From NCBI GenBank assembly GCA_964345775.1, contig CAYFSO010000001.1, positions 11,488 through 75,487 on the forward strand: DNA of 64,000 bases, in the 5' to 3' direction. This DNA is from an uncultured Leptospiraceae bacterium. Lineage in GTDB: Bacteria; Spirochaetota; UBA4802; UB4802. The position numbers were made by a program, and so were the translations under genes. How positions within the stretch are numbered: the stretch's first letter is position 1; each line of letters begins with the position of its first letter. Below the pieces are notes generated by a model, which saw nothing but the letters and a program-made list of their open reading frames with translations, made no database searches and was not told the origin of the DNA. Below are positions 10,410 through 64,000 of this stretch, one piece after another.

Positions 10410-11393
10410 ATGCCGGAAAAACCAGGGAACACATCAAACAGTAAAGGAACGAAGAAAGGGACAAGGGACAACACCAAAATGACTGGCAAACAGCTTACCA
10501 GGGAAGCAGGCCAGATCATAAAGTCCCGTAAAAGCAGAAGGAAGAAAACAGCCGGCGATGAATTCACCGATTCTTCAATTGCATGGTACCTTGAACAGAT
10601 AAATAAAATACCTCTTCTCACCCGGGAAGAGGAGGATCGTCTTGCGCGTGCGGCAAGGGCCGGTGATCAGAAAGCAAAAGATGAACTGATAAAGGCCAAC
10701 CTGCGTTTCGTTGTTTCTATCGCCAAGAAATACCAGACAAGCGGCATTTCCCTGCTTGACCTCATTAACGAGGGGAACATGGGGCTCATCAAGGCTGCAG
10801 AGAAGTTTGACCCCGACCGCGGTTACCATTTTATCTCCTATGCCGTATGGTGGATACGACAGGCCATCATACTGGCCATATCACAGAAAACCTCGCTGAT
10901 ACGGCTGCCCCTGAACAGGACTGCCGACATGCAGAAGATCGACAGGATACACAAGAACCTGGAAAACAAGCTGGGCAGGGAGCCCACACCGGGTGAGATA
11001 TCCGAGGAGATCGACATGGACAACGAGGAGATCAATCACCTGAGAAATATTTCGCAGGATTACGTTTCTCTTGACGCAACCGTGGGCAATTCCGAGGACA
11101 ATTCCATCCTCAACATGGTTGAGGATCAGAGGATGGAGTCTCCTGACAAAAGGATACTGGACGAGTCCCTTAAGGATGCACTCGACCAGGTGCTCGACAC
11201 ACTCACCTCGTCCGAAAGGGAGATACTCAAATTGCGGTTCGGCCTTGACGGTAATAAACCCATGTCACTGCAACAGATCGGCGAAAAATTTAACCTTTCC
11301 AAAGAAAGGATTAGACAGATAGAGAAAAAAGCCATACGAAGATTACGGCATCCGTCAAGAAGCCAGAAACTGAAGAGTTATCTACAGGATTGA
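10410..11393 (+). CDS. Sigma-70 family RNA polymerase sigma factor, similar to RpoD or group 2 sigma factors.
   Basis: Region 2: DLINEGNMGLIKAAEKFDPDRGYHFISYAVWWIRQAI. Region 4 HTH: SLQQIGEKFNLSKERIRQIEKKAIRRLRH. The N-terminus is lysine/arginine-rich and basic, with no acidic region 1.1. Length is 327 aa. Confidence 0.85.
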   Translation: MPEKPGNTSNSKGTKKGTRDNTKMTGKQLTREAGQIIKSRKSRRKKTAGDEFTDSSIAWYLEQINKIPLLTREEEDRLARAARAGDQKAKDELIKANLRFVVSIAKKYQTSGISLLDLINEGNMGLIKAAEKFDPDRGYHFISYAVWWIRQAIILAISQKTSLIRLPLNRTADMQKIDRIHKNLENKLGREPTPGEISEEIDMDNEEINHLRNISQDYVSLDATVGNSEDNSILNMVEDQRMESPDKRILDESLKDALDQVLDTLTSSEREILKLRFGLDGNKPMSLQQIGEKFNLSKERIRQIEKKAIRRLRHPSRSQKLKSYLQD

Positions 11394-11395
11394 TC

Positions 11396-12478
11396 ATGCG
11401 ATACTTTATCACAGGCCTTCTCCTGGGTATAGCCCTGGGTTTTGCCCCGTGGCTTATGCCCGATCACTCGTTCAAGCTATACCCGCAATGGCAGGGAGGC
11501 ATATCGGGGGCTTCATCAATAGAACATTCGCCATATGCCCCTGATTCAAATGTCCTCATTGGCCCCGTCGAAATTGAAAACGGCTATTACATGTTCAAAG
11601 AGAATGGAAAGCCTGCTGCCAGCCCCGGGACCGATGACCATCTCGTTTCCCCGTCCGGTGACGGGAAATATTATGTGCAATACGGGAAACTTTCAACGGA
11701 AATATCCTACTGCAATTACAGGGGAGAGCCTTTCTGGGCCATGTCAACAGGTAAATACCCGCACCTCTCGTACGGGGGAAAACTCATACTTCTGGTTACC
11801 GCTGACAACAGCTCTATCAGCCTTGTAGATTACAATGGCAACAGCACCGGCGCCGGGACCATCAGCGGGAGATTTTGCACCACCATTGGTTTTTCAAGAC
11901 CTGGAAATGCTGCCTCCCTGGGATTCATGGAAGGCTCGTATTATTTTTTGAACAATACCGGTGAGATTGTACACAAGGGGAGCACTCCCGAAAACTCCCT
12001 GGTCAAGACAACCGGTATCAGCGGCAACGCGCGATACGGCGCCGTACATGCGGGATTACCCGGTAAAGGCGGGGATACGCTATTCCTCCATGATATCGCC
12101 GATGAAGACTCATACATGGTGTCCCTTAAGGCAGAAAGCCTGGCAAGGGCCTCCATGACCATCAACAACAATGGTACTGGCGCCTTCCTGGGCATGTCGC
12201 ATGTGTACCTTGTAAACATCAAAAGGGAAACGCATGACGCCATAGAGATACCTGAAAGAAGGGAGGGACACAGTTCAATACAGTATTCTGACAGCCTGTA
12301 CATGATATCGTATACCGAAAAGAACGGCACATCCCGGTTCTATATTTTTCACGAGAACGGGAATGTCATCTTTACAAGGACATATCCGGACGAACCATTC
12401 CTTGATGTCATGGTGCGGGGACAGTCAATTCTTCTAAGAGGTTCTGATACGCTGTACTGCTATAGTTACCAGATCTAA
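11396..12478 (+). CDS. Hypothetical membrane-anchored extracytoplasmic protein.
   Basis: N-terminal TM segment YFITGLLLGIALGFAPWLM. The start abuts the sigma-factor stop (TGA at 11391-11393, ATG at 11396). No recognisable motif. The 3' end overlaps the convergent GT2 gene by about 70 nt. Confidence 0.5.
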   Translation: MRYFITGLLLGIALGFAPWLMPDHSFKLYPQWQGGISGASSIEHSPYAPDSNVLIGPVEIENGYYMFKENGKPAASPGTDDHLVSPSGDGKYYVQYGKLSTEISYCNYRGEPFWAMSTGKYPHLSYGGKLILLVTADNSSISLVDYNGNSTGAGTISGRFCTTIGFSRPGNAASLGFMEGSYYFLNNTGEIVHKGSTPENSLVKTTGISGNARYGAVHAGLPGKGGDTLFLHDIADEDSYMVSLKAESLARASMTINNNGTGAFLGMSHVYLVNIKRETHDAIEIPERREGHSSIQYSDSLYMISYTEKNGTSRFYIFHENGNVIFTRTYPDEPFLDVMVRGQSILLRGSDTLYCYSYQI

Positions 12479-13301
12479 GATCATCAACGATGTTCTCGAC
12501 AATTGACACAAGGTAATTGTTACCCCTTTTCCCGGCTCCATGTTGCAGTATGAACAGTTTTTCAAGCGCAACTTCCATGCTCATTTCAACATACTCTACT
12601 GGCATTACGCGGTGGCATGAATTAAGCAGTTTACATATGGCATATACCCTGAACCTGTCCATTGCCCGGTATTTTGATGAAAGCTGGTCATCATGCCCAC
12701 CGTTCCTGGTAACCAGGTATTGTGGTATATATCCAACAGCCTCTTTCCATGCAATACGCAGCCAGAGATCATAATCTTCACAGGCAGGAAGTTTTTCATC
12801 GAAAAGACCCGTTTCTTCAAGCAAATCCCGTTTCACAGCAACCGCGGAGGGGCTCACCAGGCAAAGATGAAGGGAATCAGGAAATATCCACCCTCCCCTT
12901 TTCGCGTGTTTTCTACGGGGATTCACCCGTTTGCCCTTCCTTATCCAGGTCTCGTCCACCTGGTGAATACGGCCGGCTTCGCCATGACTGTTGATATACC
13001 GATGATGTACAGTTAGTTTATGGGGCAGCCAGGTATCATCTGAATCCAGAAAGGTCAGCCAGGGTGACGCCGATTCAACTATACCCCTGTTGCGGGCAGC
13101 ACTCACCCCCGAATGCTCCTGTGGTATATATTTCAGCTTCCCGGCATACTCATGTTCAACGGATGGAGTTTCGTCAGTTGATCCGTCATCTATCACCAAC
13201 AGCTGGTAGTCAGTGTATGTCTGTGCCAGTACTGAATCTATGGCCTTTTTCAGTGATGCATACCTGTTATGAGTGGGTATTATAACAGAAAAAAACGGCA
13301 T
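12408..13301 (-). CDS. Glycosyltransferase family 2 protein.
   Basis: GT2 N-terminal signature FSVIIPTHNRYASLKKAIDSVLAQTYTDYQLLVIDDGSTDET. The ATG at 13301 has an AAGGA RBS and lies 4 nt after the MlaD stop. Confidence 0.85.
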   Translation of the reverse strand: MPFFSVIIPTHNRYASLKKAIDSVLAQTYTDYQLLVIDDGSTDETPSVEHEYAGKLKYIPQEHSGVSAARNRGIVESASPWLTFLDSDDTWLPHKLTVHHRYINSHGEAGRIHQVDETWIRKGKRVNPRRKHAKRGGWIFPDSLHLCLVSPSAVAVKRDLLEETGLFDEKLPACEDYDLWLRIAWKEAVGYIPQYLVTRNGGHDDQLSSKYRAMDRFRVYAICKLLNSCHRVMPVEYVEMSMEVALEKLFILQHGAGKRGNNYLVSIVENIVDDLRSGNYSSTAYQNLLEELTVPAP

Positions 13302-13305
13302 GGTA

Positions 13306-13995
13306 CTAATCCTTGTCACCTCTCATGAGAAATTTCAATGGATGCTTTTTCAGTTCTTGAGATATTTCATTCATGGTCTCCGCGGTCTCCCTGAAAGAAC
13401 TCATAATATCTATGATGTCCTTTTGTGAATCGGCAAGCACCACGCTGACAGTTTCCACGCTGCGGGAGAGATTTGCCAGCAGGGCCCGTATATTGCTCCT
13501 GCTGTCCAGTGAAATGTCTTGAATAACACCCACGGTACTGGTGACCGTTGCCAGGAGTTCATGCACGTCTTGAAGGATTGCCTCCAGGTTCACGTATTCA
13601 ATACCCTCTATCACCGCGTATTCCTTTATTAACTGGTGCTTGGTTTCCGGGTTTCTCAATTCGATAACTGTATCACCAATAATATTCTGGTTCTGTATAA
13701 CGGCAGTACAATCCTCGTAGATGGCAATCTCGTTTTTTACCCTCATTACTGCAAGAAAGTGTAGTGCCGGCTTATAGACAGGAATGATCTCTACGATCCT
13801 TCCTATGGTATATCCTTTAACCTTTACCTGTGTGCCATTCTTTAGCGACGAGATGCTTTCTACCTTCAGATAAATATCCTTTGTAGAGGAGGCAAAGGAA
13901 TATCCAAGTTTCAACACCACAAAAATCAGCAATACGATTACAGGCAAAAGGATAAAAACTGCCACTTTTACCTCGTTTTTTTCAAGCTTTACCAT
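13306..13995 (-). CDS. mlaD: MCE-domain protein of the MlaD family.
   Basis: N-terminal TM anchor followed by an MCE domain (GTQVKVKGYTIGRIVEI...IIGDTVIEL). An AGGAGG RBS is present. Confidence 0.8.
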   Translation of the reverse strand: MVKLEKNEVKVAVFILLPVIVLLIFVVLKLGYSFASSTKDIYLKVESISSLKNGTQVKVKGYTIGRIVEIIPVYKPALHFLAVMRVKNEIAIYEDCTAVIQNQNIIGDTVIELRNPETKHQLIKEYAVIEGIEYVNLEAILQDVHELLATVTSTVGVIQDISLDSRSNIRALLANLSRSVETVSVVLADSQKDIIDIMSSFRETAETMNEISQELKKHPLKFLMRGDKD

Positions 13996-14009: not shown

Positions 14010-14786
14010 TTACAGCGTGTGCATGGGGCCATCAATTGATGAATTCATGTACTGTGAAACGTATGGATTTTCGGCATGGGAAAACTCATCCCCGCTGCCA
14101 TCAAATACCACCTTTCCCCGGTACAGCATGACGAACCGTTCGGCGATATCAATATATAATTCAGGCCTGTAGGTAACAATGATCACAGACTTTCTCGGTG
14201 CAAAAGCCCTGTTCTGCACTGCGGATAAAAATACCTGCGTGTTCATTATACACTGTCCTTCAAGTGGGTGTTCAATGAGCAGCAGGTTTGGGTTCATGGC
14301 AATAGAACGACCATACGCTGTACGCAGCAACTGGGATGCCGTAAGATATACTGGCCGTTTTTCCCTGCAATTTTCCAGTCTCAGGTATTCAACCATGGAT
14401 TCGACCACTAAATCCACTTCGCTGGATGTGAAACTGGAATGGTAACGCAGGGGCAGCGCGATATTCTCAAACACGCTCATGTTATTGATCAGGCCGAAAT
14501 TCCTCTGAAGGTATCCAAATCCCTTGCGGAAGTTATGCACCTCAATACCGTCAAACTCTTTGATCGGCCTGCCGCCAAAATACACGTTCCCTTCAAATTC
14601 TCCCGCGGCATTCACGATCAAAGGGCAGATATGATCAATGCCGGAGTGTTCCGGTCCAAAAAAAACAATGTCTTCTCCCAGGCAGATCGACAATGAAAGG
14701 TCATCAATCCGCGTTACACCATCCACCTGGAAGGATACATTCTCAAACCGTACTATCTCATTCCCTGTTGAACATACCGTTTCCAT
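14010..14786 (-). CDS. MlaF-like ABC ATPase homolog in which every catalytic motif is degenerate (putative pseudo-ATPase).
   Basis: The ABC ATPase fold is recognisable from its position in the operon, its length, and the Q-loop/D-loop context. Walker A reads FGPEHSGIDHI and lacks the conserved Lys, where GPSGSGKST is expected. The signature motif reads LTASQ instead of LSGGx. Walker B reads LLLIEHP instead of hhhhDEP. The H-loop reads IVTYRP with no His. The ORF is intact and carries an AAGGA RBS. Confidence 0.7.
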   Translation of the reverse strand: METVCSTGNEIVRFENVSFQVDGVTRIDDLSLSICLGEDIVFFGPEHSGIDHICPLIVNAAGEFEGNVYFGGRPIKEFDGIEVHNFRKGFGYLQRNFGLINNMSVFENIALPLRYHSSFTSSEVDLVVESMVEYLRLENCREKRPVYLTASQLLRTAYGRSIAMNPNLLLIEHPLEGQCIMNTQVFLSAVQNRAFAPRKSVIIVTYRPELYIDIAERFVMLYRGKVVFDGSGDEFSHAENPYVSQYMNSSIDGPMHTL

Positions 14787-14795
14787 AATAGTCCT

Positions 14796-15692
14796 TTAGA
14801 AATAAAATAACGCAGAGATCATGGCGTTTATAACAAATATCACCAGCAGTGTACGTACAACCGCGTGTGAAACGAAAATTGGTATCTCGAATGTGGATCG
14901 CGGCTTTAATCCGTAATAACAGCATATAAGGGGGATCAATATACCGTATATAAGACTTTTCAATATAGTTATGAACAGGTCATTAAAACTGAAGGCATCA
15001 AGCAGCGTCTGAACAAATACTCCCATTGGAATATACACGGTGGAAATAGATATCAGGTACCCCCCGAAAAAGGCAACAATATCGAATATTATTATAAGGG
15101 AAAATATTGCAATAATAGAGGCGATGATCCGCGGTAAAATTATATAAAGCTTGGTATCTATACCCATCAATTCAAGAGACAGAATTTCGCTGTTCTGTTT
15201 CTGTGTGGCAATTTCAGCGGCAATGGCCGAACCAGACCTGCTTACCACGATCATGGCGGTAACCAGTGGACCCAGTTCGCGGGCAATGATGATCACCAGG
15301 AGGTTACCTATAAAACTCTCTATACCAAATTTTGGAAAATTAGTATGTGCCTGTATAATAACTGTTCCACCCAGCATCAGGGCTATTATAACCAGCAATG
15401 GCAGTGCATCGAGCCCTGTAAACCGTGTCTGGTTCACCACTATGGTGTACAGTGACCTGAAACGGAGGTACCGTATAGACTTGAATGATGTTACAATACT
15501 GACAACATAATCAAGAAAGGCCCGTATACCGTCGCGGGTACGCAGAATCCGCTGTATAATATTCTTTACGAAACGGGGAACATTTATTGAAATGTGCACG
15601 TGAAGCGCTCCATAGAATACGGGATAACTCATGAAAAACATGACCCCTTGATCACAGGGACAACAGTATACGCATTTCATTAGAAAGCGCAA
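14796..15692 (-). CDS. mlaE: MlaE-family ABC transporter permease.
   Basis: Conserved MlaE core ARELGPLVTAMIVVSRSGSAIAAEIATQKQNSEILSLELMGID and multiple TM segments. The true start may be an internal Met. Confidence 0.8.
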   Translation of the reverse strand: MRFLMKCVYCCPCDQGVMFFMSYPVFYGALHVHISINVPRFVKNIIQRILRTRDGIRAFLDYVVSIVTSFKSIRYLRFRSLYTIVVNQTRFTGLDALPLLVIIALMLGGTVIIQAHTNFPKFGIESFIGNLLVIIIARELGPLVTAMIVVSRSGSAIAAEIATQKQNSEILSLELMGIDTKLYIILPRIIASIIAIFSLIIIFDIVAFFGGYLISISTVYIPMGVFVQTLLDAFSFNDLFITILKSLIYGILIPLICCYYGLKPRSTFEIPIFVSHAVVRTLLVIFVINAMISALFYF

Positions 15693-15817: not shown

Positions 15818-17344
15818 GTGATATTTGATTATAATGGAATTGTTGATATGACAACTGGCAAAATTACAACGGGCATAATAATACTGTTACTGGTTCTTGT
15901 TGCTTTTCTGGGTATACTTAAAAAAGAACTGGTTATTTATACCGTGGACACCTGCAGGGGATACGTCCTTGGGCTTATATCGGACATGGAAAACCGTGAC
16001 AGGTTCACCATCGTGTATCCATCCCTGGAAAAGGAGTACGTACGCCCGTACGCGGGGAAAACGGAAAGGATATATCACTCCGGGCAAATGCTGTTCTACC
16101 GCACAGACTCACGTGAATCTCTCAGGGCTATATCAAAAAGACTTCTCGGGTACACCCATTATTACCGGAGTTACAACCTGGAAAAGGCCATCATGGAAGC
16201 CAATGCCCTTAATTCAAAGACAGTTGATCCGAATGTTATTCTTTTCATTCCATATTCGCTTTCAGCAGCCATACTGGACATGAAAAAGACCAGCATGCCT
16301 GATATTCCCCCGGTACGGGGCCTGTACTTTACGGGCAACAGCCTTGGCAACTATAATTTCATAAAATCACTCAAAGAACTGCGGAAACAGGGGATCAACA
16401 CCATCGTGTTCGACGCAAAAGATATCCCCGGCATTATAAGTTACCTGAGCCATGTGCCCGCCGTACAGGAGCTTAATACACACGGGAAAAGGACAGTGGA
16501 CGATATAGCCTCACTTATTCGTATCTTCAAGTCCCTGGATTATTACGTGATAGCCCGCCTGGCGGTATTTCACGACCACCTGCTGGTTAAAAAGAAACCT
16601 GAATACGGCATACAGTCCAGGACAACAGGCCGTGTATGGAACGAGGGATCAAAAGAATTATGGTGCGACCCCACGAACAAGTACGTACAGGATTACAACA
16701 TAGCTATTGCCCTGGAACTTGCCCATTATGGTGTAGACGAGATCCAGTTCGATTATATCAGGTTCCCAACCACGGGAAATCTCCATGACGCAAATTATGC
16801 CTGGCATTTTGGAAAAATGCAAAAGGAAGAGGTAATAGCGCATTTTCTGAAAAGGGCAAGCAGTGAGATACATGCAACCAATACCCGTGTCTCGATCGAC
16901 ATTTTCGGTGTGGTGGCATGGGGAAAAAGCGTAGACATCAGGAAAACCGGTCAAAAGGTTGAGCTGCTGGCCAGGTACTGCGATGTCATTTCCCCCATGT
17001 TGTACCCGTCCCATTTTAACGATGATTTTGACGGCTTCAGCAAGCCCGGCGACAACCCGTATTACTTTATTTACCAGGGATGCAAGCGGGTGAAAAAACT
17101 TGCGGGAGGCACCCGCGTAAGACCATGGCTGCAGGCTTTCAAATGGAGAGTCAGCAATTACAACGAGGAATATATATTGCAGCAGGTAAAGGCAAGCCAC
17201 GATGCGGGGGCAGAGGGGTACCTCTTCTGGAACGCGGGAAATAATTACGGCACCGTTATTAAAGCCATGGCATCGCTGAAAATACAAGATAACGATAAAA
17301 ATACCGCGAATATCACCCGCCGGCACAGCTTCTCTCAGCGCTGA
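15818..17344 (+). CDS. Putative glycoside-hydrolase-like TIM-barrel protein (GHL10/DUF4015-like) with an N-terminal membrane anchor.
   Basis: N-terminal TM segment TGIIILLLVLVAFLGIL. The motifs WCDPTN...YGVDEIQFDYIRFP and EGYLFWNAGNNY resemble the YngK/GHL10-type hydrolase core. The start is either GTG 15818 or ATG 15848. Confidence 0.55.
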   Translation: MIFDYNGIVDMTTGKITTGIIILLLVLVAFLGILKKELVIYTVDTCRGYVLGLISDMENRDRFTIVYPSLEKEYVRPYAGKTERIYHSGQMLFYRTDSRESLRAISKRLLGYTHYYRSYNLEKAIMEANALNSKTVDPNVILFIPYSLSAAILDMKKTSMPDIPPVRGLYFTGNSLGNYNFIKSLKELRKQGINTIVFDAKDIPGIISYLSHVPAVQELNTHGKRTVDDIASLIRIFKSLDYYVIARLAVFHDHLLVKKKPEYGIQSRTTGRVWNEGSKELWCDPTNKYVQDYNIAIALELAHYGVDEIQFDYIRFPTTGNLHDANYAWHFGKMQKEEVIAHFLKRASSEIHATNTRVSIDIFGVVAWGKSVDIRKTGQKVELLARYCDVISPMLYPSHFNDDFDGFSKPGDNPYYFIYQGCKRVKKLAGGTRVRPWLQAFKWRVSNYNEEYILQQVKASHDAGAEGYLFWNAGNNYGTVIKAMASLKIQDNDKNTANITRRHSFSQR

Positions 17345-17374: not shown

Positions 17375-18184
17375 TTGATTGTACGTGACAGGGATTTTTT
17401 CAATGAATACGTGAAGGTGTGGGACGAGGGAGCCGTCAAGGATGCACCCTTTATTACCCTGGGCGTAGAGGCCATATTAAAAGACTACTACGGGAACCTC
17501 CTGGATGCCCCCCCGCCCTTTCCCATAGAAAAAAACGAAAAAATACTGGACCTGGGGTGTGGATGGGGCCGGGTGCTGAAACCGGTTCTTGACCTGCAGG
17601 GTGATGCGGTGGGCCTTGACATATCCCATAACATGCTGGGGCTGTCCAAAAAGCATCTTGAAAAAAACGGGTACCAGACTCCCCTTCTTCAGGGGGACGG
17701 GACACGCCTGCCATTCAGGGACAACACCTTTGACAAGGTGTACTCACTGCTGGTGCTGCAGCATCTTTCAAAGGAAAACGGTAAAGCCGTATTCGAAGAA
17801 ATACAAAGGATACTTAAGGCCGGGGGAACCGCGTATATCCGTGTACCCGGCAGGTTCGCGCCCGAAAACCTTCTATTCAGCTTTCTGCAGTTTTTCAGCA
17901 TTCACCTTTTCAGGGTAAAGGATCCAATACGGATGCGTTTTTACAGGGTGGGGGAAGCGAAAAAGATCACTGAAAAGCTGTTTTCTGATGTTGAGATCAC
18001 GGCCCATGAATTCAGGCCCCCCTGGAATTTTCACACAAGGTGGACCTGGCAATACATACTTGTACCCCGGTTCATGCATGCCAGGCTGCGGAAGATCTCT
18101 GACTGGTTCGAGAAGAAAGCCAACGGCAGGGTTCCCTTTCTGAAACATTTCGGTATTGTACTGATGGTACGGGTAACGAAGTAG
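17375..18184 (+). CDS. Class I SAM-dependent methyltransferase.
   Basis: Motif I is ILDLGCGWGRVL, the post-I motif is GLDIS and motif II is FDKVYSLLVLQHL. The start is non-ATG (TTG), after an AGGAG RBS. Confidence 0.75.
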   Translation: MIVRDRDFFNEYVKVWDEGAVKDAPFITLGVEAILKDYYGNLLDAPPPFPIEKNEKILDLGCGWGRVLKPVLDLQGDAVGLDISHNMLGLSKKHLEKNGYQTPLLQGDGTRLPFRDNTFDKVYSLLVLQHLSKENGKAVFEEIQRILKAGGTAYIRVPGRFAPENLLFSFLQFFSIHLFRVKDPIRMRFYRVGEAKKITEKLFSDVEITAHEFRPPWNFHTRWTWQYILVPRFMHARLRKISDWFEKKANGRVPFLKHFGIVLMVRVTK

Positions 18185-18191
18185 CCCGGTT

Positions 18192-19757
18192 TTATTCCCA
18201 GCGGATAGTTGTTCCTTTATTGTCCCTGTGAACCTGGAGACACTCAAGGCTCACAAGACGTTCCAGTTCCCTGTGTACTTCGCCATTACAGCCGGAAAGA
18301 TTATCCGAAATATGCTTTTCCAGGAGGCCCATCACCGCTGCATCAGGTGCACCATTGGTCATACCGCTGAATTGTTCCACCAGGCGATTCATAATAATAT
18401 CCCGGGTGATCTCAAACGAACGTATGTTCTGATATAATGTTCTATCTGCCTCTGACAGTTTTTCACCCTTTTCAAACTTGACCTGTATGGTACGTATACA
18501 GTGGACAATACTGTCATTAAAACCGTTTACGATGTTGTCAATCTCCCTGTGTGAGATAAACCCTGTATCAGATACTGACCTGTTGGCATCATACTGATCC
18601 CAGTCATCGGTAAGGATGCGAAGCCCGTATTCATCCTTCTTATCCCGAACCTCAGTACCGGGAAACGGTGCCAGGATATGATAACCGTAATTGGGGCTGA
18701 GATTGCTGGCAAATTCCATGGTTTTTTTTATCGTACCAGGTGTCTCACCCGGAAGTCCCAGGATGTACGAGGTCATGGGATCTATGCCAACCTCGTTGCA
18801 GAGGTCAACCGCCTGCTGGCATTTTTCCAGTGTAATTTTCTTTTTTACCCTATCCAGTATCTCCTGGTTGCCACTTTCAATACCAAAACAGAGCGTTGTA
18901 CACCCTGCTTCCTTGAGGTTTTCCAGCAATTCACGGTTTACCGTATCTACACGGGCAAAGGCCGTCCAGGGATGATCAATCCCCCTGTCAATTATCTCAC
19001 GGCAGATGGCAATGCAGCGTTTTTTGTGGGACGTGAAAAGGTCGTCTACCACGTTGATCTGCCTGAATTTGAGTTTCGACAGCATCTCGAACTCATCCAC
19101 CACGCGTTTCACATCAAAATACCGCACCCTGCGTCCCACCATTTTACTTCCCACGCAGAATATACACGAAAAGGGACACCCCCGTGATGTCATCAGGTTC
19201 ACAGGAAACCCCAGTGCCCGGTACTTACTCAATTCTACCAGGTGTCGCGCCGGGAAAGGCAGTATGTTAATATCTTCTATAAACGCCCTTCGGGGATTGT
19301 GATGGATCTTACCATTACGCCTGTATGAAATTCCCTTTACGCGTTCAAGCCGTGACGGTGAAGCAAGGTTTTCAAGAAGATCCACAAATGTAAGTTCACC
19401 CTCACCTCGAACAATATAATCGATCCAGCTGTTATCACGCAAAATTGCAGTAGCATCAAAGGTGACGTGCGGACCACCCATGACGGTGACTATACCGGGC
19501 GCACAATCCCTGTAATCCCTGAGAATTGCAAGGCTGCGATTTATATTCATGGTTACGCCGGTGCCGCCAACAACATCCGGTTTAAACGTGTTCACCACTT
19601 CTTGTACACGTTCTTTTGAATACGGTGTAACTATATAGTCCTCTATCCTGACCGTTGCACCCTGCTCAACAAGGTAGGCGGCCAGGGTCATAAGACCAAA
19701 TGGGGGTGACGGTGACTCCTCGAAAGGATAGGGAGGGTTAATTAACAGCACCTTCAT
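18192..19757 (-). CDS. B12-binding-domain radical SAM protein.
   Basis: N-terminal cobalamin-binding-like domain (MKVLLINPPYPF...). Radical SAM CxxxCxxC motif: RGCPFSCIFC. A C-terminal extension of about 200 aa has unknown function. The start was chosen at the ATG with a GGAG RBS; the ORF track extends to 19856. Confidence 0.8.
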   Translation of the reverse strand: MKVLLINPPYPFEESPSPPFGLMTLAAYLVEQGATVRIEDYIVTPYSKERVQEVVNTFKPDVVGGTGVTMNINRSLAILRDYRDCAPGIVTVMGGPHVTFDATAILRDNSWIDYIVRGEGELTFVDLLENLASPSRLERVKGISYRRNGKIHHNPRRAFIEDINILPFPARHLVELSKYRALGFPVNLMTSRGCPFSCIFCVGSKMVGRRVRYFDVKRVVDEFEMLSKLKFRQINVVDDLFTSHKKRCIAICREIIDRGIDHPWTAFARVDTVNRELLENLKEAGCTTLCFGIESGNQEILDRVKKKITLEKCQQAVDLCNEVGIDPMTSYILGLPGETPGTIKKTMEFASNLSPNYGYHILAPFPGTEVRDKKDEYGLRILTDDWDQYDANRSVSDTGFISHREIDNIVNGFNDSIVHCIRTIQVKFEKGEKLSEADRTLYQNIRSFEITRDIIMNRLVEQFSGMTNGAPDAAVMGLLEKHISDNLSGCNGEVHRELERLVSLECLQVHRDNKGTTIRWE

Positions 19758-20046
19758 TGACTTCACTCCTCGTGCCAATAGAACTGGAAACATTGCCACG
19801 CGCACAACCTGGCAGGGATCCAGGCAAAAAATTTTGATGACCAGAAAAGCAAGCATATATCAAAAGGTTGTTTATTTGTAAATAATATTTTGAAAAACAC
19901 CTTCCATGATCATTTTTTTCAAACATAACAGTGAAATGTATTTGACAGAAAGTGACTATTTTAAAAAATACTTGACTGCCCTCTTCAAGGGATAAGAAAC
20001 TGGAAAACCGCCAAATAAGACATGCGAACTACGCAAGGAGCGTTAA

Positions 20047-20328: not shown

Positions 20329-21651
20329 ATGTTGTTAACCACATTCAGAGGCGGCATCCATCCTCCCGGACACAAGGAACTGAGCAGGGATAAGGCTTTT
20401 ACCAATCTTTCAGTTCCTCACAGGTGCTATATTCCCCTGCAGCAGCATATTGGAAAGCCAGCAGTTCCCCTTGTTGAAGTAGATGATATAGTCGAAGAGG
20501 GCCAGATGATAGGAAGGGCCGATGGCTTTATAAGTGCCAACGTGCATGCCTCCATTCCCGGAAAAGTAGTAGAAATTGCCGAGTACCCAACCGTATACTC
20601 TGAACATGGGAAATGTGTGGTTATAGAAACCGAGGGCTCGTTCTCATCGTCAGGCCAGTTAAAAGAATCCAGGAACTGGGAAGATATCTCACCCGAAGAG
20701 CTCATGTCCCTGATTCATGATGCAGGTATCGTTGGCATGGGAGGTGCCGCGTTCCCCACGGCGGTAAAGCTTAGCCCGCCCGAACACAGGGAAATTGACA
20801 CATTCGTGATCAACGGTGCCGAATGCGAACCATACCTTAGCGTTGACGACATGCTGATGCAGACCTACCCCGACGAGATCATCGAAGGGATACGCATCGT
20901 TCTGAAGATACTGGAAATAAACCATGCCGTTATCGGCATAGAAAAGAATAAACCCAAAGCCGTAAAGTCCATCTCGCGGGCCCTTGAAAAAGGGAACTTC
21001 AACGAGTCCATTGAATTGAATGCTCTCCCCGCCAAGTACCCGCAGGGAGCAGAAAAACAGCTCATCTATACAATGCTGAAACGAGAAGTCCCTTCCGGTG
21101 AACTCCCTCTCGATGTAGGGGTAGTCGTAAATAACGTGGGAACCATTTTTGCAATACGTGAAGCAGTTATAAACGGGAAACCACTCATTGAGCGGTATCT
21201 TACCATTACAGGAAGCATTGTAAAAAATCCAGGCAACTACAAGGTGAGGATCGGCACCAGTATATCGGATGTTATCCATGAATGCGGGGGACTTACCGAC
21301 AAACCCGCGAAGATAATAATGGGTGGACCAATGTGCGGCATGGCATTGAATCATCTTGAAATATCAGTAGTTAAAGGTACATCAGGGATACTTTTTCTCG
21401 GACAGGATGAAGTGAACATTCACGAGTACAGCCCATGTATACGATGCGGCAGATGTGTTGCCGCATGTCCCATACACCTGATGCCCAACGAGCTTGGTAA
21501 TGCGGTTGAGAAGCAGCGGTACGACATTGCCGAGAGATTACATCCCTTTGACTGTATAATGTGCGGTTCATGTACATACGTGTGCCCGTCAAAACGCCCA
21601 TTGAGCCATTTCATTAAACTGGCCCAGGTAACGTTCAGCGCCAAACGCTGA
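20329..21651 (+). CDS. rnfC: Rnf electron transport complex subunit C.
   Basis: N-terminus MLLTTFRGGIHPPGHKELS. It has an NADH/FMN-binding core and two 4Fe-4S motifs, CIRCGRCVAACP and CIMCGSCTYVCP. Confidence 0.9.
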   Translation: MLLTTFRGGIHPPGHKELSRDKAFTNLSVPHRCYIPLQQHIGKPAVPLVEVDDIVEEGQMIGRADGFISANVHASIPGKVVEIAEYPTVYSEHGKCVVIETEGSFSSSGQLKESRNWEDISPEELMSLIHDAGIVGMGGAAFPTAVKLSPPEHREIDTFVINGAECEPYLSVDDMLMQTYPDEIIEGIRIVLKILEINHAVIGIEKNKPKAVKSISRALEKGNFNESIELNALPAKYPQGAEKQLIYTMLKREVPSGELPLDVGVVVNNVGTIFAIREAVINGKPLIERYLTITGSIVKNPGNYKVRIGTSISDVIHECGGLTDKPAKIIMGGPMCGMALNHLEISVVKGTSGILFLGQDEVNIHEYSPCIRCGRCVAACPIHLMPNELGNAVEKQRYDIAERLHPFDCIMCGSCTYVCPSKRPLSHFIKLAQVTFSAKR

Positions 21652-21689
21652 TATTATCACCACAGAATACACAAGGAACCGGTACTATC

Positions 21690-22769
21690 ATGGCTGACGA
21701 AAAAAGGTTACAGGAAGATCTTGTACTCTCGAATCCTCCACATATTCGATCAAAGGATTCCCTCGGGAAAGTTATGTGGCTGGTGGTCATATCTCTTTTG
21801 CCTGCAACCATTAACTCGGTTTACCTGTTTGGCCTGCAGGTAGTGGTCCTGATCGGCACCGCCATTCTGTCGGCGGTTCTTGCTGAAGCGGTGTTCCAGT
21901 TTCTCATGAAAAAGGAAATTACCGCACTGGATGGATCGGCTGTTATTACCGGTCTTTTACTGGCAATGAACGTTCCTCCACATGCACCGGCATGGATGGT
22001 GGGTATTGGCTCCGCGTTTGCGATTATTATTGCCAAGCAGTTGTTCGGAGGCACCGGCTTCAATATTTTCAACCCGGCCCTTGCAGGCAGGGCCTTCCTT
22101 ATGGCATCATGGCCGGTTGAAATGACTACCATGTGGCACCCCTTCACGTCCGGCAATGTATTGTCATCTACGCTGCCACAGGCACATGGACTCCCGCAAA
22201 AAGCCGTGGACACCATCTCTTCGGCAACCCCGCTGGGAGTATTGAAAGAAGGTCCGGGCATGGTAAAGGAATTCAACGTTATGCCTGAACAGCTGCATGA
22301 GTTTCTTTTTTCCAATACGATGATGAAGTCACTTTTCATGGGGAATATAGGGGGGTGTATTGGCGAGACTTCAGCCATCTTCATTCTTTTAGGAGCACTT
22401 TTTCTACTTTACAGGAAAATTATCACCTGGCATATACCCGTATCATATATAGGGACGGTAGCTGTCATCATGCTGACATACTACCTGCTGAGCGGCTCCG
22501 ACATGCCGTACAGGGCCACCCTCTTTCACCTGTTATCCGGTGGATTGATGCTTGGTGCATTCTACATGGCCACCGATATGGTCACATCTCCTGTCACTGC
22601 CAGGGGAATGCTGATTTTCGGTATCGGCTGTGGTATCATCACGTCTGTTATACGGCTGTGGGGAGGGTACCCTGAAGGCGTATCATATTCCATATTATTG
22701 ATGAATGCCGCCGTTCCGCTGATTGACAGGTTGACAAGGCCAACAGTATTCGGTACAGAAAAAACATGA
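21690..22769 (+). CDS. rnfD: Rnf complex subunit D.
   Basis: Polytopic membrane protein carrying the conserved FNIFNPALAGRAFL and SSATPLG motifs. Confidence 0.9.
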   Translation: MADEKRLQEDLVLSNPPHIRSKDSLGKVMWLVVISLLPATINSVYLFGLQVVVLIGTAILSAVLAEAVFQFLMKKEITALDGSAVITGLLLAMNVPPHAPAWMVGIGSAFAIIIAKQLFGGTGFNIFNPALAGRAFLMASWPVEMTTMWHPFTSGNVLSSTLPQAHGLPQKAVDTISSATPLGVLKEGPGMVKEFNVMPEQLHEFLFSNTMMKSLFMGNIGGCIGETSAIFILLGALFLLYRKIITWHIPVSYIGTVAVIMLTYYLLSGSDMPYRATLFHLLSGGLMLGAFYMATDMVTSPVTARGMLIFGIGCGIITSVIRLWGGYPEGVSYSILLMNAAVPLIDRLTRPTVFGTEKT

Positions 22770-22797
22770 TCCAGGAATCCCAATATCGGAGAATATA

Positions 22798-23511
22798 ATG
22801 ACGACCAGGGAAATAATAAAGGGCACAATCATAATTGCCATCATCGCGTTCATAGCGGCTTTTTCGCTTTCCCATATCAATAATATTACAAGCCCGGCAA
22901 TTAAGGCGCAGCAGAAGGAAAAGGAAGAAAGTGCTCTTTCTGTGGTGCTTCCGGGGTATACAATACAGGAAAAAAGATCAACCTCCATTGATGGCGAAGA
23001 TTTTACGTACTGGACTGCGCAGAAAAAGGGAAACGGCCAGACTCTAAAAGCTTTTGCGTTTATCACAAGTCATCCAGGGTATTCAGGTGATATCAGGATG
23101 ATGGTTGGCATAAACAGTAAAAACCAGATCCTGGGACTTTCCATTCTTTCGCAGACAGAAACCCCGGGGCTGGGCGCACGATGCACCGAAATTGCCACCA
23201 CTGAAACATTTTTCGGGCATATACTCGGCACGTCCGTTGATGAAAATAAAGCACCTGGCACCGATGAACCCGCGCGTCCATGGTTCCAGAAACAATTCAA
23301 AGGCCTTGACGCAGAAGAAAAGATCGAGATCGTAAAGAAGGGCGACTGGCAGCCCTCGATGAGGGAGGAACTGCGAAAAAAGAACGCGGTAACCACCATC
23401 ACCGGGGCCACGGTAACCACCAGGGCAGTACGTGACGGCATCAAGGAAGGGATTGAAAACCTGCACAGGGCGCGCAAAAAACCTGAAAACGGGAGGGTTG
23501 ACGCAAAATGA
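22798..23511 (+). CDS. rnfG: Rnf complex subunit G, FMN-binding.
   Basis: N-terminal TM segment. The FMN-attachment region GATVTTRAV is present. Confidence 0.85.
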   Translation: MTTREIIKGTIIIAIIAFIAAFSLSHINNITSPAIKAQQKEKEESALSVVLPGYTIQEKRSTSIDGEDFTYWTAQKKGNGQTLKAFAFITSHPGYSGDIRMMVGINSKNQILGLSILSQTETPGLGARCTEIATTETFFGHILGTSVDENKAPGTDEPARPWFQKQFKGLDAEEKIEIVKKGDWQPSMREELRKKNAVTTITGATVTTRAVRDGIKEGIENLHRARKKPENGRVDAK

Positions 23512-24101
23512 GTTATCTCAATGATTTTATGAAAGGACTCTGGGAGAAGAACCCTATTCTCGTACTTGGTATAGGTCTCTGCCCCACCCTGGCGGTAACC
23601 ACGTCGGTATCAAACGCACTCTGGATGACCCTTGCAACCTCGTTTGTAATGGTCAGCTCAAATATTCTCGTGTCCATTATCCGGAAAGTCGTTCCGCCCC
23701 ATATACGTATTCCCATATTCATTACCATCATAGCAAGTTTCGTTATCATCGTGGAGCTTACACTCAAAGCATTTCAGCCTGATGTATACAAGGCACTGGG
23801 GATATTCATCCCCCTCATTGTTGTCAACTGTATGATACTTGGCAGAGCCGAGGAATTTGCATCAAAGAATACGCTGGGCAGGTCAATACTTGACGGACTT
23901 GGTATGGGAGCGGGTTTCGGCTTTACCCTGGTTATCCTTGCGTTCTTTCGTGAGACACTTGGGGCAAACAAGCTCTTTGGCCTTACCCTCATCCCCGGCA
24001 TAAAACCTGCCACCATGATGATACTGCCACCCGGGGCTTTTATAACACTTGGCCTCATGCTCTGGGCCATGAACGCCATCAAGTCAAAGACCAGGGGGTA
24101 A
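23508..24101 (+). CDS. rnfE: Rnf complex subunit E.
   Basis: MSYLNDFMKGLWEKNPILVLGIGLCPTLAVT is typical of RnfE/NqrD. Its start overlaps the rnfG stop by 4 nt. Confidence 0.9.
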   Translation: MSYLNDFMKGLWEKNPILVLGIGLCPTLAVTTSVSNALWMTLATSFVMVSSNILVSIIRKVVPPHIRIPIFITIIASFVIIVELTLKAFQPDVYKALGIFIPLIVVNCMILGRAEEFASKNTLGRSILDGLGMGAGFGFTLVILAFFRETLGANKLFGLTLIPGIKPATMMILPPGAFITLGLMLWAMNAIKSKTRG

Positions 24102-24103
24102 CC

Positions 24104-24703
24104 ATGGAGATCAAGGTACTTTTTGCCATACTTATAAGCACCATATTCGTTAACAACTACGTGCTCTCCCAGATGCTGGGATTGTGTCCTTTTCTTGGCG
24201 TTTCCAAGAGACTTGATTCTGCCATAGGCATGGGAATGGCCGTCATATTCGTTATGACCATGGCCTCCTTTTTCACGTATTTTATTTACAAGTTTGTCCT
24301 GGTTCCGTACAACATAACTTACCTCAGGACCATTGCCTTTATCATAGTCATAGCCTCACTTGTTCAGCTGGTGGAAATGGTCATAGAAAAGGTGTCCCCA
24401 TCCCTCTACCAGGCACTTGGTATTTTTCTTCCGCTGATAACTACCAACTGTGCCGTAATGGGTGTGGCGGTTTTGAACATTGATTCTGGATTCATCACGG
24501 CCAATATGGGCCTTTTGAAAACAGTGGTACAGGGACTTGGAGCGGGACTGGGCTTTACGCTGGCACTTCTGCTGCTGGCAGGCATACGTGAACGGCTCGA
24601 ACTGGCCGATATCCCTGAAAACATGAGGGGGCTCCCCATTACGTTCATTATTGCCGGACTGCTGGCCATGGCATTCTTAGGTTTTTCTGGAATGCAGATA
24701 TAA
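24104..24703 (+). CDS. rnfA: Rnf complex subunit A.
   Basis: IFVNNYVLSQMLGLCPFLGVSKRLDSAIGMG is typical of RnfA/NqrE. Confidence 0.9.
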   Translation: MEIKVLFAILISTIFVNNYVLSQMLGLCPFLGVSKRLDSAIGMGMAVIFVMTMASFFTYFIYKFVLVPYNITYLRTIAFIIVIASLVQLVEMVIEKVSPSLYQALGIFLPLITTNCAVMGVAVLNIDSGFITANMGLLKTVVQGLGAGLGFTLALLLLAGIRERLELADIPENMRGLPITFIIAGLLAMAFLGFSGMQI

Positions 24704-24725
24704 AATACTCGTACAGGACATATTA

Positions 24726-25361
24726 ATGGAACACAAGGAACCCGTAGTTACATTGCTGGCCATAACACCGGGGGCGGAAAAACTGATCGAGGAAGCAGGA
24801 AGAACCTGTTACCTGTCACTGGACCGTATTACCGACGAAAGCGAGAAAAACTTTATTCGCAAATGCATAAAGAACGGTCACCATTCCATACTGGAACACG
24901 CTTCAGCCAGTTTCAGGATACAGGGCGCTTCGCGGGCATTTACCCATCAACTGGTTCGCCACAGGGTTGCCAGTTTTTCTCAGCAGTCCCAGCGATATGT
25001 TAACGAATCAGAATTTAATTACGTAATACCTCCCGATATACTTGAGAATGATGAGGCAGCCCGCGTGTACAGGGAATTCATAGAACAATCCCGCAGGGCA
25101 TACAACAGCCTCAGGGAAGCCGGCATCAAGAAAGAAGACGCCCGTTTCGTTCTTCCCAATGCACTTGAAAGCCAGATAGTTTTCAGTGCCAATTTCAGGG
25201 AACTCAGGCACGTTTTTTCCCTCAGGCTGGAGAGGTTTGCACAGTGGGAAATACGCAGGGTGAGTGTTCAAATGCTGAAGTTACTTCAGGAAGAAGTCCC
25301 TTCCGTGTTCGGCGATTACATCATCGACGAAACGAACTGGACGGCAAAGTCTTCGTTGTAA
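24726..25361 (+). CDS. thyX: FAD-dependent thymidylate synthase ThyX.
   Basis: The ThyX signature RHR-x7-S-x-R appears as LVRHRVASFSQQSQRY. It also has SILEH and the N-terminus ITPGAEKLIEEAGRTCY. Confidence 0.85.
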   Translation: MEHKEPVVTLLAITPGAEKLIEEAGRTCYLSLDRITDESEKNFIRKCIKNGHHSILEHASASFRIQGASRAFTHQLVRHRVASFSQQSQRYVNESEFNYVIPPDILENDEAARVYREFIEQSRRAYNSLREAGIKKEDARFVLPNALESQIVFSANFRELRHVFSLRLERFAQWEIRRVSVQMLKLLQEEVPSVFGDYIIDETNWTAKSSL

Positions 25362-62120: not shown

Positions 62121-62831
62121 TCATGGCTGTTCTCCGCCTGTCATCAAGGTATCATCGATTATGGAACCATCCACCAGCGTGACCACCCTCTCGGTCCTTG
62201 CGGCAATGCTGCTGTCATGGGTGACTATGATGATGGTGGCATCCTTTTCCCTGCCAAGCTCAAGAAGGCGGCCGGTAAGCAGGTCAGAATTGGCGGTATC
62301 CAGGTTACCCGTGGGCTCGTCTGCCAGGACGATATCGGGGTTCCCCACCATGGCCCGGGCCACTGCGATCCGCTGGCATTCGCCGCCGGAGAGCTCGGCA
62401 GGCTTGTGGGTGGCCCTTTCTGAAAGACCGAAATGGTCAAGCAGGTGCATGGCATCTTCCCGTGCCTTCCGTTTGGGCCATCGGCGTATCAGCAGCGGCA
62501 TCATGATGTTCTCAAGGGCATTGAACTCGGGAAGAAGGTTATGCATCTGGAAGATAAACCCGATATGTTCATTCCTGAACCCGGACATGTCATCCACGGA
62601 AAAGGGAGGCACGTTGTGGGACAACACCGATACACTGCCATGCTGGTAGGTATCGAGACAGCCTATAATATTCAGAAGGGTTGACTTGCCCGCACCGGAT
62701 GGCCCCACGATGGTAACGGTCTCACCTTTTTGTATGGTAAGGGAAAGGTCCTGTATGACCGTTACCCTGCTCTCACCGTACCCGTAATGTTTTACCAGGT
62801 CCTGTATTTCTATTATCGTATCTTTTATCAT
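62121..62831 (-). CDS. ABC transporter ATP-binding protein, LolD/MacB-type.
   Basis: Walker A is GPSGAGKST, the signature is LSGGECQRIAVARAM, Walker B is VLADEPTGNLD, and the H-loop is VTHD. Confidence 0.85.
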   Translation of the reverse strand: MIKDTIIEIQDLVKHYGYGESRVTVIQDLSLTIQKGETVTIVGPSGAGKSTLLNIIGCLDTYQHGSVSVLSHNVPPFSVDDMSGFRNEHIGFIFQMHNLLPEFNALENIMMPLLIRRWPKRKAREDAMHLLDHFGLSERATHKPAELSGGECQRIAVARAMVGNPDIVLADEPTGNLDTANSDLLTGRLLELGREKDATIIIVTHDSSIAARTERVVTLVDGSIIDDTLMTGGEQP

Positions 62832-62849
62832 TAGCCTGTCCTGAAGGGT

Positions 62850-64000
62850 TTACTCGTACCTGATGGTTTCAACCGGGTGCAGCCTCGACGCATGCCATGA
62901 CGGGAAGATGGCTGCCACCGTGGCGATGAATACCGCGAATATGGCGATGAACACCACGAATTGCGGATCTATCTGCGCCGGTATGGTGTCTATATAATAT
63001 ACACTGCTGGGAACCAGTGAGAGGGGCTCGAACATTCCAAGATCTAAAAGCTCGTACACCAATCCCATCCCGTAATTGATAGTTCGTTCAATCCAGCGAA
63101 TAATGGCTTCAAGGTTGAGGGCGGTTGCAAGTCCAAAGACCACGCCCAGGAATGAACCGATTATCCCGATAAAGAATCCCTCCAGCACAAAGATAACCAT
63201 GATGGACAGCGGACGGGCACCCATGGCTTTCAGCACCCCGATGGCCTTTCGCTTTTCCATCACCACCATCACCAGCGTCCCCATTATGGTAAAGGCCGCG
63301 GAGATAATGACCAGGAAGAGGATGATGGTCATGATCAGTTTTTCAAGCTTCAATGCGTAGAAAAGGTTCTGGTTGCGCTGTTCGGCGGTCAATGTCTGGT
63401 ATTCCCAGCCAACGGCAGACTGTATTTTACGGGCAATGCTGTTCATGGCATAAATGTCTTTAATCTTTACACCGATACCCCAGACTATATCTCCAACATC
63501 GTAAAGACGCTGCGCCGCCGTAAGGGACATGATGATAAGCCTGGTATCAAAATCGTAATACCCGGTCTTAAAAAAGCCGATCACTTTATATCGCCCCATC
63601 CCCGGCTGCACCCCTTCCCTTGCGGTCAACCGTCCCTTGGGTACGATGAGCTCAATGTAATCACCAATGGATATATTGTAATTGAGGGCCATCTCTTCTC
63701 CCACGAAAATCCCACGCCGGTTGCCGAAATCCTTCTCTCCCTCGGTGAGAAAACTGGTCACGTCTTCAGGGATCTCTCCGTTCTCCAGTCCAACCCCGCG
63801 CAGCATTACGGGACTGATATAGCTTCTGAACCTGAACAGCCCCTGCCCCTGTATGAATGGCATGGTGCTTGTCACCCCGTCGATGTTGTTTATCTTCTCT
63901 ACTTTTTCACGGTAATCACGTATCCCTTCACCTTCGCTCACGCCGGTATAACGGCTGACGGTTATATGGGAATCCACGTCCAGTATCTTGTCACGTATCT
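62850..64000 (-). CDS. ABC transporter permease of the FtsX / LolC/E family. It is partial: its N-terminus lies beyond the window end.
   Basis: Large periplasmic domain followed by the C-terminal FtsX-type TM bundle (...LSIMVIFVLEGFFIGIIGSFLGVVFG...). It sits directly downstream of the LolD-like ATPase. Confidence 0.75.
   Translation of the reverse strand, partial: IRDKILDVDSHITVSRYTGVSEGEGIRDYREKVEKINNIDGVTSTMPFIQGQGLFRFRSYISPVMLRGVGLENGEIPEDVTSFLTEGEKDFGNRRGIFVGEEMALNYNISIGDYIELIVPKGRLTAREGVQPGMGRYKVIGFFKTGYYDFDTRLIIMSLTAAQRLYDVGDIVWGIGVKIKDIYAMNSIARKIQSAVGWEYQTLTAEQRNQNLFYALKLEKLIMTIILFLVIISAAFTIMGTLVMVVMEKRKAIGVLKAMGARPLSIMVIFVLEGFFIGIIGSFLGVVFGLATALNLEAIIRWIERTINYGMGLVYELLDLGMFEPLSLVPSSVYYIDTIPAQIDPQFVVFIAIFAVFIATVAAIFPSWHASRLHPVETIRYE

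Follow-up and report, generated by a model that had tools for sequence, protein, structure and literature searches.

A conserved MlaF-like pseudo-ATPase encoded between mlaE and mlaD in uncultured Spirochaetota

The DNA analysed here is a 64-kb stretch from an uncultured Leptospiraceae bacterium, referred to below as the window. On its minus strand it carries an operon in the order mlaE-F*-mlaD, in which F* stands for an MlaF-like pseudo-ATPase encoded at 14010..14786, a protein whose six ATP-binding cassette (ABC) motifs (Walker A, Q-loop, signature, Walker B, D-loop and H-loop) are all non-canonical. As an earlier note on this sequence had pointed out, F* is a full-length open reading frame (ORF) with a good ribosome-binding site, and it is flanked by genes for a permease and for a protein of the MCE family:

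14010..14786, minus strand: F*, MlaF-like pseudo-ATPase, 258 amino acids (aa), ATG start, between mlaE and mlaD
14792..14796, minus strand: Shine-Dalgarno sequence AAGGA of F*, 5 nt upstream of the start and overlapping the mlaE stop codon
14796..15692, minus strand: MlaE-family permease (PF02405, 190 bits), longest ORF 298 aa with a TTG start
13306..13995, minus strand: MlaD/MCE-domain protein (PF02470, 46 bits), 229 aa, with an N-terminal transmembrane helix

The spacers, as read from the sequence, are 9 nt between mlaE and F* and 14 nt between F* and mlaD, so that mlaD, which has the ribosome-binding site GGAGGA, starts 14 nt past the F* stop codon. Other gene calls place the start of mlaE at 15641 (281 aa) or 15680 (294 aa). 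The mlaE gene ends in a TAA codon at 14796-14798 and is in the same reading frame as F*, with the TAA plus 9 nt between the two. The overlap of the F* Shine-Dalgarno sequence with this stop codon is compatible with translational coupling from mlaE to F* (14784-14798, minus strand), and read-through of the stop codon would yield a fused protein of permease and nucleotide-binding domain (NBD).

F* matches the Pfam family ABC_tran (PF00005) weakly but significantly (32 bits, cut-off 25), and its top NCBIfam family is MlaF (NF008809), at 80.6 bits and below the equivalog cut-off of 441. HMMER comparison with individual MlaF proteins gave E=8e-25 for that of A. baumannii (7d06/6z5u) and E=6e-21 for that of E. 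coli (6xbd). An AlphaFold2 (AF2) model built from an alignment of 28 family members was of high confidence (predicted local distance difference test score, pLDDT, 88.8; predicted template modelling score, pTM, 0.87), and its top Foldseek matches in the PDB were structures of E. coli MlaF (6xgz/6xbd/7ch7; template modelling score, TM, 0.87-0.89), with other MlaF chains and MceG ranking next; TM to ABC NBDs generally was 0.75-0.89. In the model the fold of F* is intact and of the MlaF type. A conserved DGPM near the C-terminus aligns with the DGPV of E. coli MlaF, F* ending ~14 residues earlier, and the C-terminal tail is of low confidence in the AF2 model.

The best-conserved part of F* is a block at residues 99-116, directly past the Q-loop position, in which N108, P112, L113 and H116 are common to canonical MlaF. 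From the general architecture of ABC NBDs we infer that this block forms part of the cleft that receives the coupling helix. Each NBD has a cleft that binds a coupling helix of the transmembrane domain (PMC7367683). In current annotations these proteins appear as ‘MlaF ATPase subunit’ or ‘ATP-binding cassette domain-containing protein’.

Every catalytic motif of F* has been replaced. We located the motifs by HMMER alignment to the MlaF of A. baumannii and of E. coli, and counted residues over 73 non-redundant sequences of the clade to which F* belongs, which is called K-less below after the missing Walker A Lys. The remnants in F* itself are the following:

14634..14657, minus strand: Walker A remnant GPEHSGID, residues 44-51 (fourth Gly replaced by His, Lys by Ile, Ser/Thr by Asp)
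14502..14507, minus strand: Q-loop position, Q94-R95 (the canonical Gln aligns with R95)
14331..14345, minus strand: signature remnant LTASQ, residues 148-152 (clade consensus L-[TS]-x-S-E)
14250..14285, minus strand: Walker B and D-loop remnant LLLIEHPLEGQC, residues 168-179 (includes LLLIEH)
14163..14180, minus strand: H-loop remnant IVTYRP, residues 203-208 (switch His replaced by Tyr206)

The Walker A Lys is present in none of the sequences (0/73), its place being taken by Ile, Ala, Leu, Val, Thr or His, and the adjacent Ser/Thr position is occupied mainly by Asp or Glu; Gly44 and Gly49 are kept in 100% of the clade and Glu46 occurs in 99%. At the Q-loop, position 95 is never Gln (0/73) and is Arg or Lys in 56/73, with Gln at position 94 in 65/73. 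The string ‘YLQR’ might suggest a retained Q-loop, a reading that we rejected, because the alignments put the canonical Gln at R95 and Q94 lies one residue upstream. The second Gly of the signature (position 151) survives in 2/73, and 66/73 have Glu152. In the Walker B region the Asp has become Glu172 (72/73) and the catalytic Glu has become His173 (71/73), while the D-loop Asp is replaced by Cys179 in 67/73. Position 206, that of the switch His, holds Tyr or Phe in 69/73 and His in 3/73, next to an invariant Pro208. The earlier note had listed four changed motifs. All four of the strings it quoted are present in the DNA, but its count was too low, the Q-loop and the D-loop having changed as well.

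The substitute residues are themselves conserved across the clade: E46, C54, E152, E172, H173, Q178, C179 and P208 each reach 90-100%. Near-invariance of this kind points to a new functional constraint on the site rather than to drift. At positions 54, 173 and 179 the majority residues of canonical MlaF-like proteins are Leu, Glu and Asp, so that Cys and His there are specific to the degenerate clade. The near-invariant Cys and His residues of F* (C54, C140, H116, H173 and C179) lie in or beside the former ATP site, together with E46 and E172.

Three assemblies that are independent of one another contain the identical 258-aa protein, on a 78.5-kb JGI metagenome contig, a 9.8-kb microbial-mat contig from ENA and an NCBI contig of ~100 kb. 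A search of 5.8 billion proteins found ~29 relatives with 43-73% identity, all of them from metagenome-assembled genomes (MAGs) of Spirochaetes/Spirochaetota, and scanning a single genome for each GTDB species yielded 43 loci (L005-L047) with intact ORFs of 39-73% identity, in MAGs labelled Spirochaetota, Leptospirales or Leptospiraceae, where the same non-canonical motifs recur. When 1.84 billion cluster representatives were searched with a profile, ~20 scored >190 bits, and below that score the matches were mainly ordinary ABC ATPases. The F* family is therefore small. Carriers among cultured or named organisms were not found; cluster look-ups and a search that started from a Turneriella-type relative returned only proteins from MAGs and metagenomes.

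The gene order mlaE-F*-mlaD is kept in essentially all K-less loci (~45), and F* is under strong purifying selection. The ratio of non-synonymous to synonymous substitution rates (dN/dS, Nei-Gojobori) was 0.02-0.15 for F*, comparable to that of mlaE (0.02-0.11) and mlaD (0.02-0.08) and below that of the co-operonic gene for a family-2 glycosyltransferase (GT2; 0.10-0.28). These ratios come only from pairs with unsaturated dS, which are the closer pairs inside the clade; between the window and its closest ortholog, dS is saturated for F* and mlaD.

That F* is a decaying pseudogene, or that its motifs are products of sequencing or assembly error, would fit the weak Pfam and NCBIfam scores for an ABC ATPase. 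We nevertheless rejected both, and give them practically no credence: the three independent assemblies agree on an identical protein, an intact F* with the same substitutions is found at 43 or more other loci, dN/dS is low and the predicted fold is confident. The gene is thus real, and its replaced motifs belong to the clade and not to one copy. The earlier note had read the uninterrupted ORF with its changed motifs as a sign of selection for a non-hydrolysing homolog rather than of recent decay, and this is supported on three of the points that it had raised: syntenic orthologs carry the same substitutions instead of canonical motifs, dN/dS lies in the range given above, and agreement between independent assemblies excludes sequencing error. 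Its word ‘paralog’ fits less well, because F*, by its place in the operon, looks like the resident MlaF ortholog and not an extra paralog.

Beside the K-less clade stands a second group of degenerate homologs, in Turneriella/Leptospiraceae-type MAGs, in which the Walker A Lys is kept (‘GPE.SGK’). In this K-retaining group the signature is lost (‘L..SE’), the catalytic Glu is changed to Asn, Ser or His, the D-loop Asp to Cys and the H-loop His to Tyr; some members keep GxxGxGK[S] (e.g., P0061, P0065 and L049), and Cys179 and Glu46 are already fixed. Its loci (L048-L050, L053, L054, L087-L090) carry F* and mlaD as a tight two-gene unit (e.g., L049:9953-11473 and L087:10001-11568), followed by a convergent gene of ~260 aa with a weak SH3_3 match, and no mlaE was found within ±10 kb of these units. 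Canonical MlaEF operons occur in other Spirochaetota (L055, L056, L058, L065, L069), in Fibrobacter and in others. Neighbour-joining (NJ) trees recover the K-less clade as monophyletic, with the full data set as well as in 74/100 bootstraps, while one common origin for K-less and K-retaining forms together appears in 37/100 NJ bootstraps, which is weak. We claim monophyly for the K-less clade alone and make no claim on the order of events. The series formed by canonical MlaEF, the K-retaining group and the K-less clade counts in favour of reading F* as a dead MlaF.

The operon ends with the glycosyltransferase gene, and a gene for a DUF4015 protein diverges from mlaE:

12408..13319, minus strand: family-2 glycosyltransferase (GT2), final gene of the operon, likely start 13301
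15818..17344, plus strand: DUF4015 protein, putative glycosyl-hydrolase-like, divergent from mlaE

The likely GT2 start lies 4 nt after the mlaD stop codon, and GT2 appears translationally coupled to mlaD; DUF4015 is a fixed divergent neighbour in ~40 species. GT2 is syntenic in most orthologous loci and DUF4015 in almost all, and nearly every locus shows the arrangement DUF4015(-), mlaE-F*-mlaD-GT2(+), a 360-aa hypothetical protein(-) and sigma-70(-). These two neighbours hint that the substrate or the regulation of the system may involve a glycolipid or a polysaccharide and not plain phospholipid.

In the window the last two members of this arrangement are a 362-aa protein (11390-12478, plus strand), which has no Pfam or NCBIfam match and whose 3’ end overlaps the convergent GT2 by ~70 nt, and a sigma-70-family gene (10410-11393, plus strand); both stand beside the operon in most orthologous loci. 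Directly beyond DUF4015 lies a class-I S-adenosylmethionine (SAM) methyltransferase (17375-18184, plus strand), which adjoins DUF4015 in L001 too, and next to it a B12-binding radical-SAM protein (18192-19856, minus strand) with HpnJ/BchE-like matches under the cut-off. The methyltransferase and radical-SAM pair could mark a lipid-modification neighbourhood. Farther away are an Rnf-type operon (RnfC, D, G, E and A-like genes) followed by thyX, within 20329-25361, and, at the end of the window, a LolD-LolC/E lipoprotein-release pair (62121-63977).

The earlier note had proposed a search for a second, canonical MlaF; we made it in the window and in ±10 kb around ~45 orthologous loci, and none turned up there. 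Within the window, neither a six-frame Walker A regular expression nor phmmer with canonical ABC queries revealed a second MlaF, the sole other ABC ATPase being a canonical LolD (62121..62831) beside LolCE. The flanks likewise held no MlaF-like ATPase; their ABC matches were LolD-like by sequence in L008 and L013, and in L031, L033, L034 and L040 were ORFs of ~650 aa that were assigned to the MacB type by length. Among the window's other large ORFs, Pfam scanning gave no match to MlaA, MlaB/STAS or MlaC.

On balance we consider it probable that F* is a conserved, catalytically dead descendant of MlaF that serves as a structural or gating subunit, with lipid movement that is ATP-independent or powered in another way. 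F* keeps the ABC NBD fold, by sequence an MlaF-type C-terminus, and the putative permease-docking block, whereas canonical ATP binding and hydrolysis would be gone. In E. coli MlaF the single changes K47A or E170Q abolish complementation, so that either alone is enough to inactivate that protein (PMC7367683). The motif content of F* predicts no hydrolysis, and we infer from it that both binding and hydrolysis of ATP have been lost. F* presumably forms a complex with MlaE and MlaD and would serve, on the cytoplasmic side, as the structural subunit of an MlaE2-F*2-MlaD6-type assembly, holding the MlaE dimer together and fixing or gating its conformation. Lipid, possibly glycolipid, would then pass through MlaE and MlaD without hydrolysis by the system’s own NBD, either down a gradient or with some other source of power, and transport of this kind would be ATP-independent.

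Several points weigh against this reading. The loss of ATP binding is a prediction from the motifs. Walker B mutants of M. tuberculosis MceG failed to stabilise Mce complexes (PMC9947336), so that a dead NBD is not automatically a good scaffold. Mycobacterial Mce systems use MceG as an unlinked ATPase (PMC9947336), and a canonical MlaF- or MceG-type ATPase encoded elsewhere in these genomes is conceivable, though in our estimate unlikely. Finally, substitutes as strongly conserved as those of F* could mean that the site binds another ligand and is not simply inert.

The possibility of an unlinked ATPase leads to the idea that ATP power is supplied in trans, by a canonical MlaF- or MceG-like ATPase encoded elsewhere that replaces F* on MlaE or heterodimerises with it, F* then being a regulatory or asymmetric partner. 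There is precedent for both halves of this idea, in that unlinked MceG serves Mce1 and Mce4 (PMC9947336) and many ABC transporters tolerate one degenerate site (PMC7756269); canonical MlaEF operons do exist in other Spirochaetota, and our search was confined to the window and the ±10-kb flanks. Described degenerate ABC transporters, however, deviate at one of two composite sites (PMC7756269), whereas F* is without either half, be it that of Walker A, Q-loop, Walker B and H-loop or that of signature and D-loop. A one-degenerate-site arrangement needs a deviant NBD whose own Walker A/B half or own signature is intact; F* has lost both half-sites, so a heterodimer with canonical MlaF would hold no consensus site. 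Together with the absence of a canonical MlaF from the window and the ~45 flanked loci, and with an operon structure that predicts 1:1 co-production of MlaE and F*, this makes ATP supply in trans unlikely in our view. We think it far less likely still that F* itself binds and hydrolyses nucleotide through a non-canonical site. The P-loop glycines Gly44 and Gly49 are kept, Walker B still has an acidic residue in E172, and some K-retaining relatives have GxxGxGK[S], but the clade has dispensed with the Walker A Lys and Ser/Thr, the Q-loop Gln, the catalytic Glu, the H-loop His and LSGGQ, when loss of K47 or E170 alone disables the E. coli protein (PMC7367683).

A refinement of the dead-MlaF reading, rather than a competitor to it, holds that the former nucleotide site has been rebuilt for another ligand, which might be a metal ion, a lipid head group or a second messenger, and that F* is a sensor that gates MlaE. 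The near-invariant residues E46, C54, C140, E152, E172, H173 and C179 are typical ligand or metal binders, the Cys/His/Glu cluster could form a metal or redox site, and Cys179 and Glu46 were found fixed in the K-retaining relatives too. Pfam and NCBIfam scans, in turn, gave no match to a known metal- or ligand-binding family, and it is just as possible that the conserved polar residues make up a direct interface between proteins, in place of the ATP ‘glue’; we regard the refinement as rather improbable. The same holds, as a speculation, for its most far-reaching form, an ATP-free MlaE/MCE transporter in which both former ATP pockets (Glu46, Cys54, Glu152, Glu172, His173 and Cys179) would have become inter-subunit metal-, redox- or ligand-binding sites that staple or switch the NBD dimer, turning an ABC pump into a gated passive conduit for lipid or glycolipid. 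The K-retaining lineage could be an earlier stage of such a conversion from pump to conduit.

Mla/MCE systems are central to outer-membrane lipid homeostasis, and both the contribution of ATP and the direction of lipid movement are debated. The K-less clade offers a natural experiment on these questions, in which the permease and the MCE subunit are constrained while the cognate NBD is without every ATP-handling motif. It allows one to ask which Mla functions need no ATP and what an NBD does beyond hydrolysis, be it scaffolding, gating or sensing. Pipeline labels that name F* proteins as ATPases overstate their capability. The earlier note knew of no Mla system that runs on a pseudo-ATPase, and the literature that we searched likewise describes no degenerate or pseudo-ATPase MlaF or Mla system; motif loss is not a topic of the phylogenomic Mla survey (PMC10665443). 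F* and its partners thus represent an apparently undescribed, clade-wide case of a pseudo-ATPase subunit in an Mla/MCE transporter.

Among known systems, the closest to F* is the MlaF of MlaFEDB (E. coli, A. baumannii, P. aeruginosa; PDB 6xbd, 7d06, 7ch8), which has the same fold (TM 0.87-0.89) and is its best family match. The likeness extends to the MlaE and MlaD neighbours, to the ‘PL(R)xH’ block and to the C-terminal ‘...Q-x7-DGP[MV]’ tail. F* differs from MlaF in the replacement of every catalytic motif, E. coli MlaF needing both K47 and E170, and in a C-terminal extension that is ~14 residues shorter than that of E. coli; unlike MlaFEDB, the locus showed no STAS/MlaB partner in the window scans and has GT2 in the operon. 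The minimal MlaEFD system of Veillonella parvula (PMC10665443) has the same order, mlaE-F-D, and likewise MlaB, MlaC and MlaA are absent from the locus. MceG (Mkl), the shared ATPase of mycobacterial Mce1/Mce4 (PDB 8fed), is a member of the MlaF family that matches F* significantly in both sequence and structure. It stabilises the MCE complex besides its catalytic role, and its Walker B residues are needed for transport and stabilisation alike (PMC9947336). MceG is catalytically active and encoded apart from the permease genes, whereas F* sits between mlaE and mlaD.

Non-hydrolytic changes can be selected at the signature, the H-loop and the catalytic Glu, as is seen in heterodimeric ABC transporters with one degenerate site (TM287/288, TAP1/2, CFTR and BSEP among others); in most of them the deviant site can still bind ATP, and its counterpart is a consensus site (PMC7756269). 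F* goes beyond these in having lost both half-sites, including the Walker A Lys, and if it homodimerises like MlaF, both sites would be dead. As far as we have found, this would be the first ABC-type transporter family whose sole operon-encoded NBD is degenerate in both half-sites. PqiABC and LetAB/YebST of E. coli are MCE lipid conduits that apparently work without a dedicated ATP-hydrolysing NBD; they use membrane proteins of the PqiA/LetA type and have neither an MlaE permease nor an NBD-like subunit. The locus described here differs from them in keeping both MlaE (PF02405, 190 bits) and a protein with the NBD fold, and it may stand midway between Mla systems driven by an ABC ATPase and the ATPase-less MCE systems Pqi and Let.

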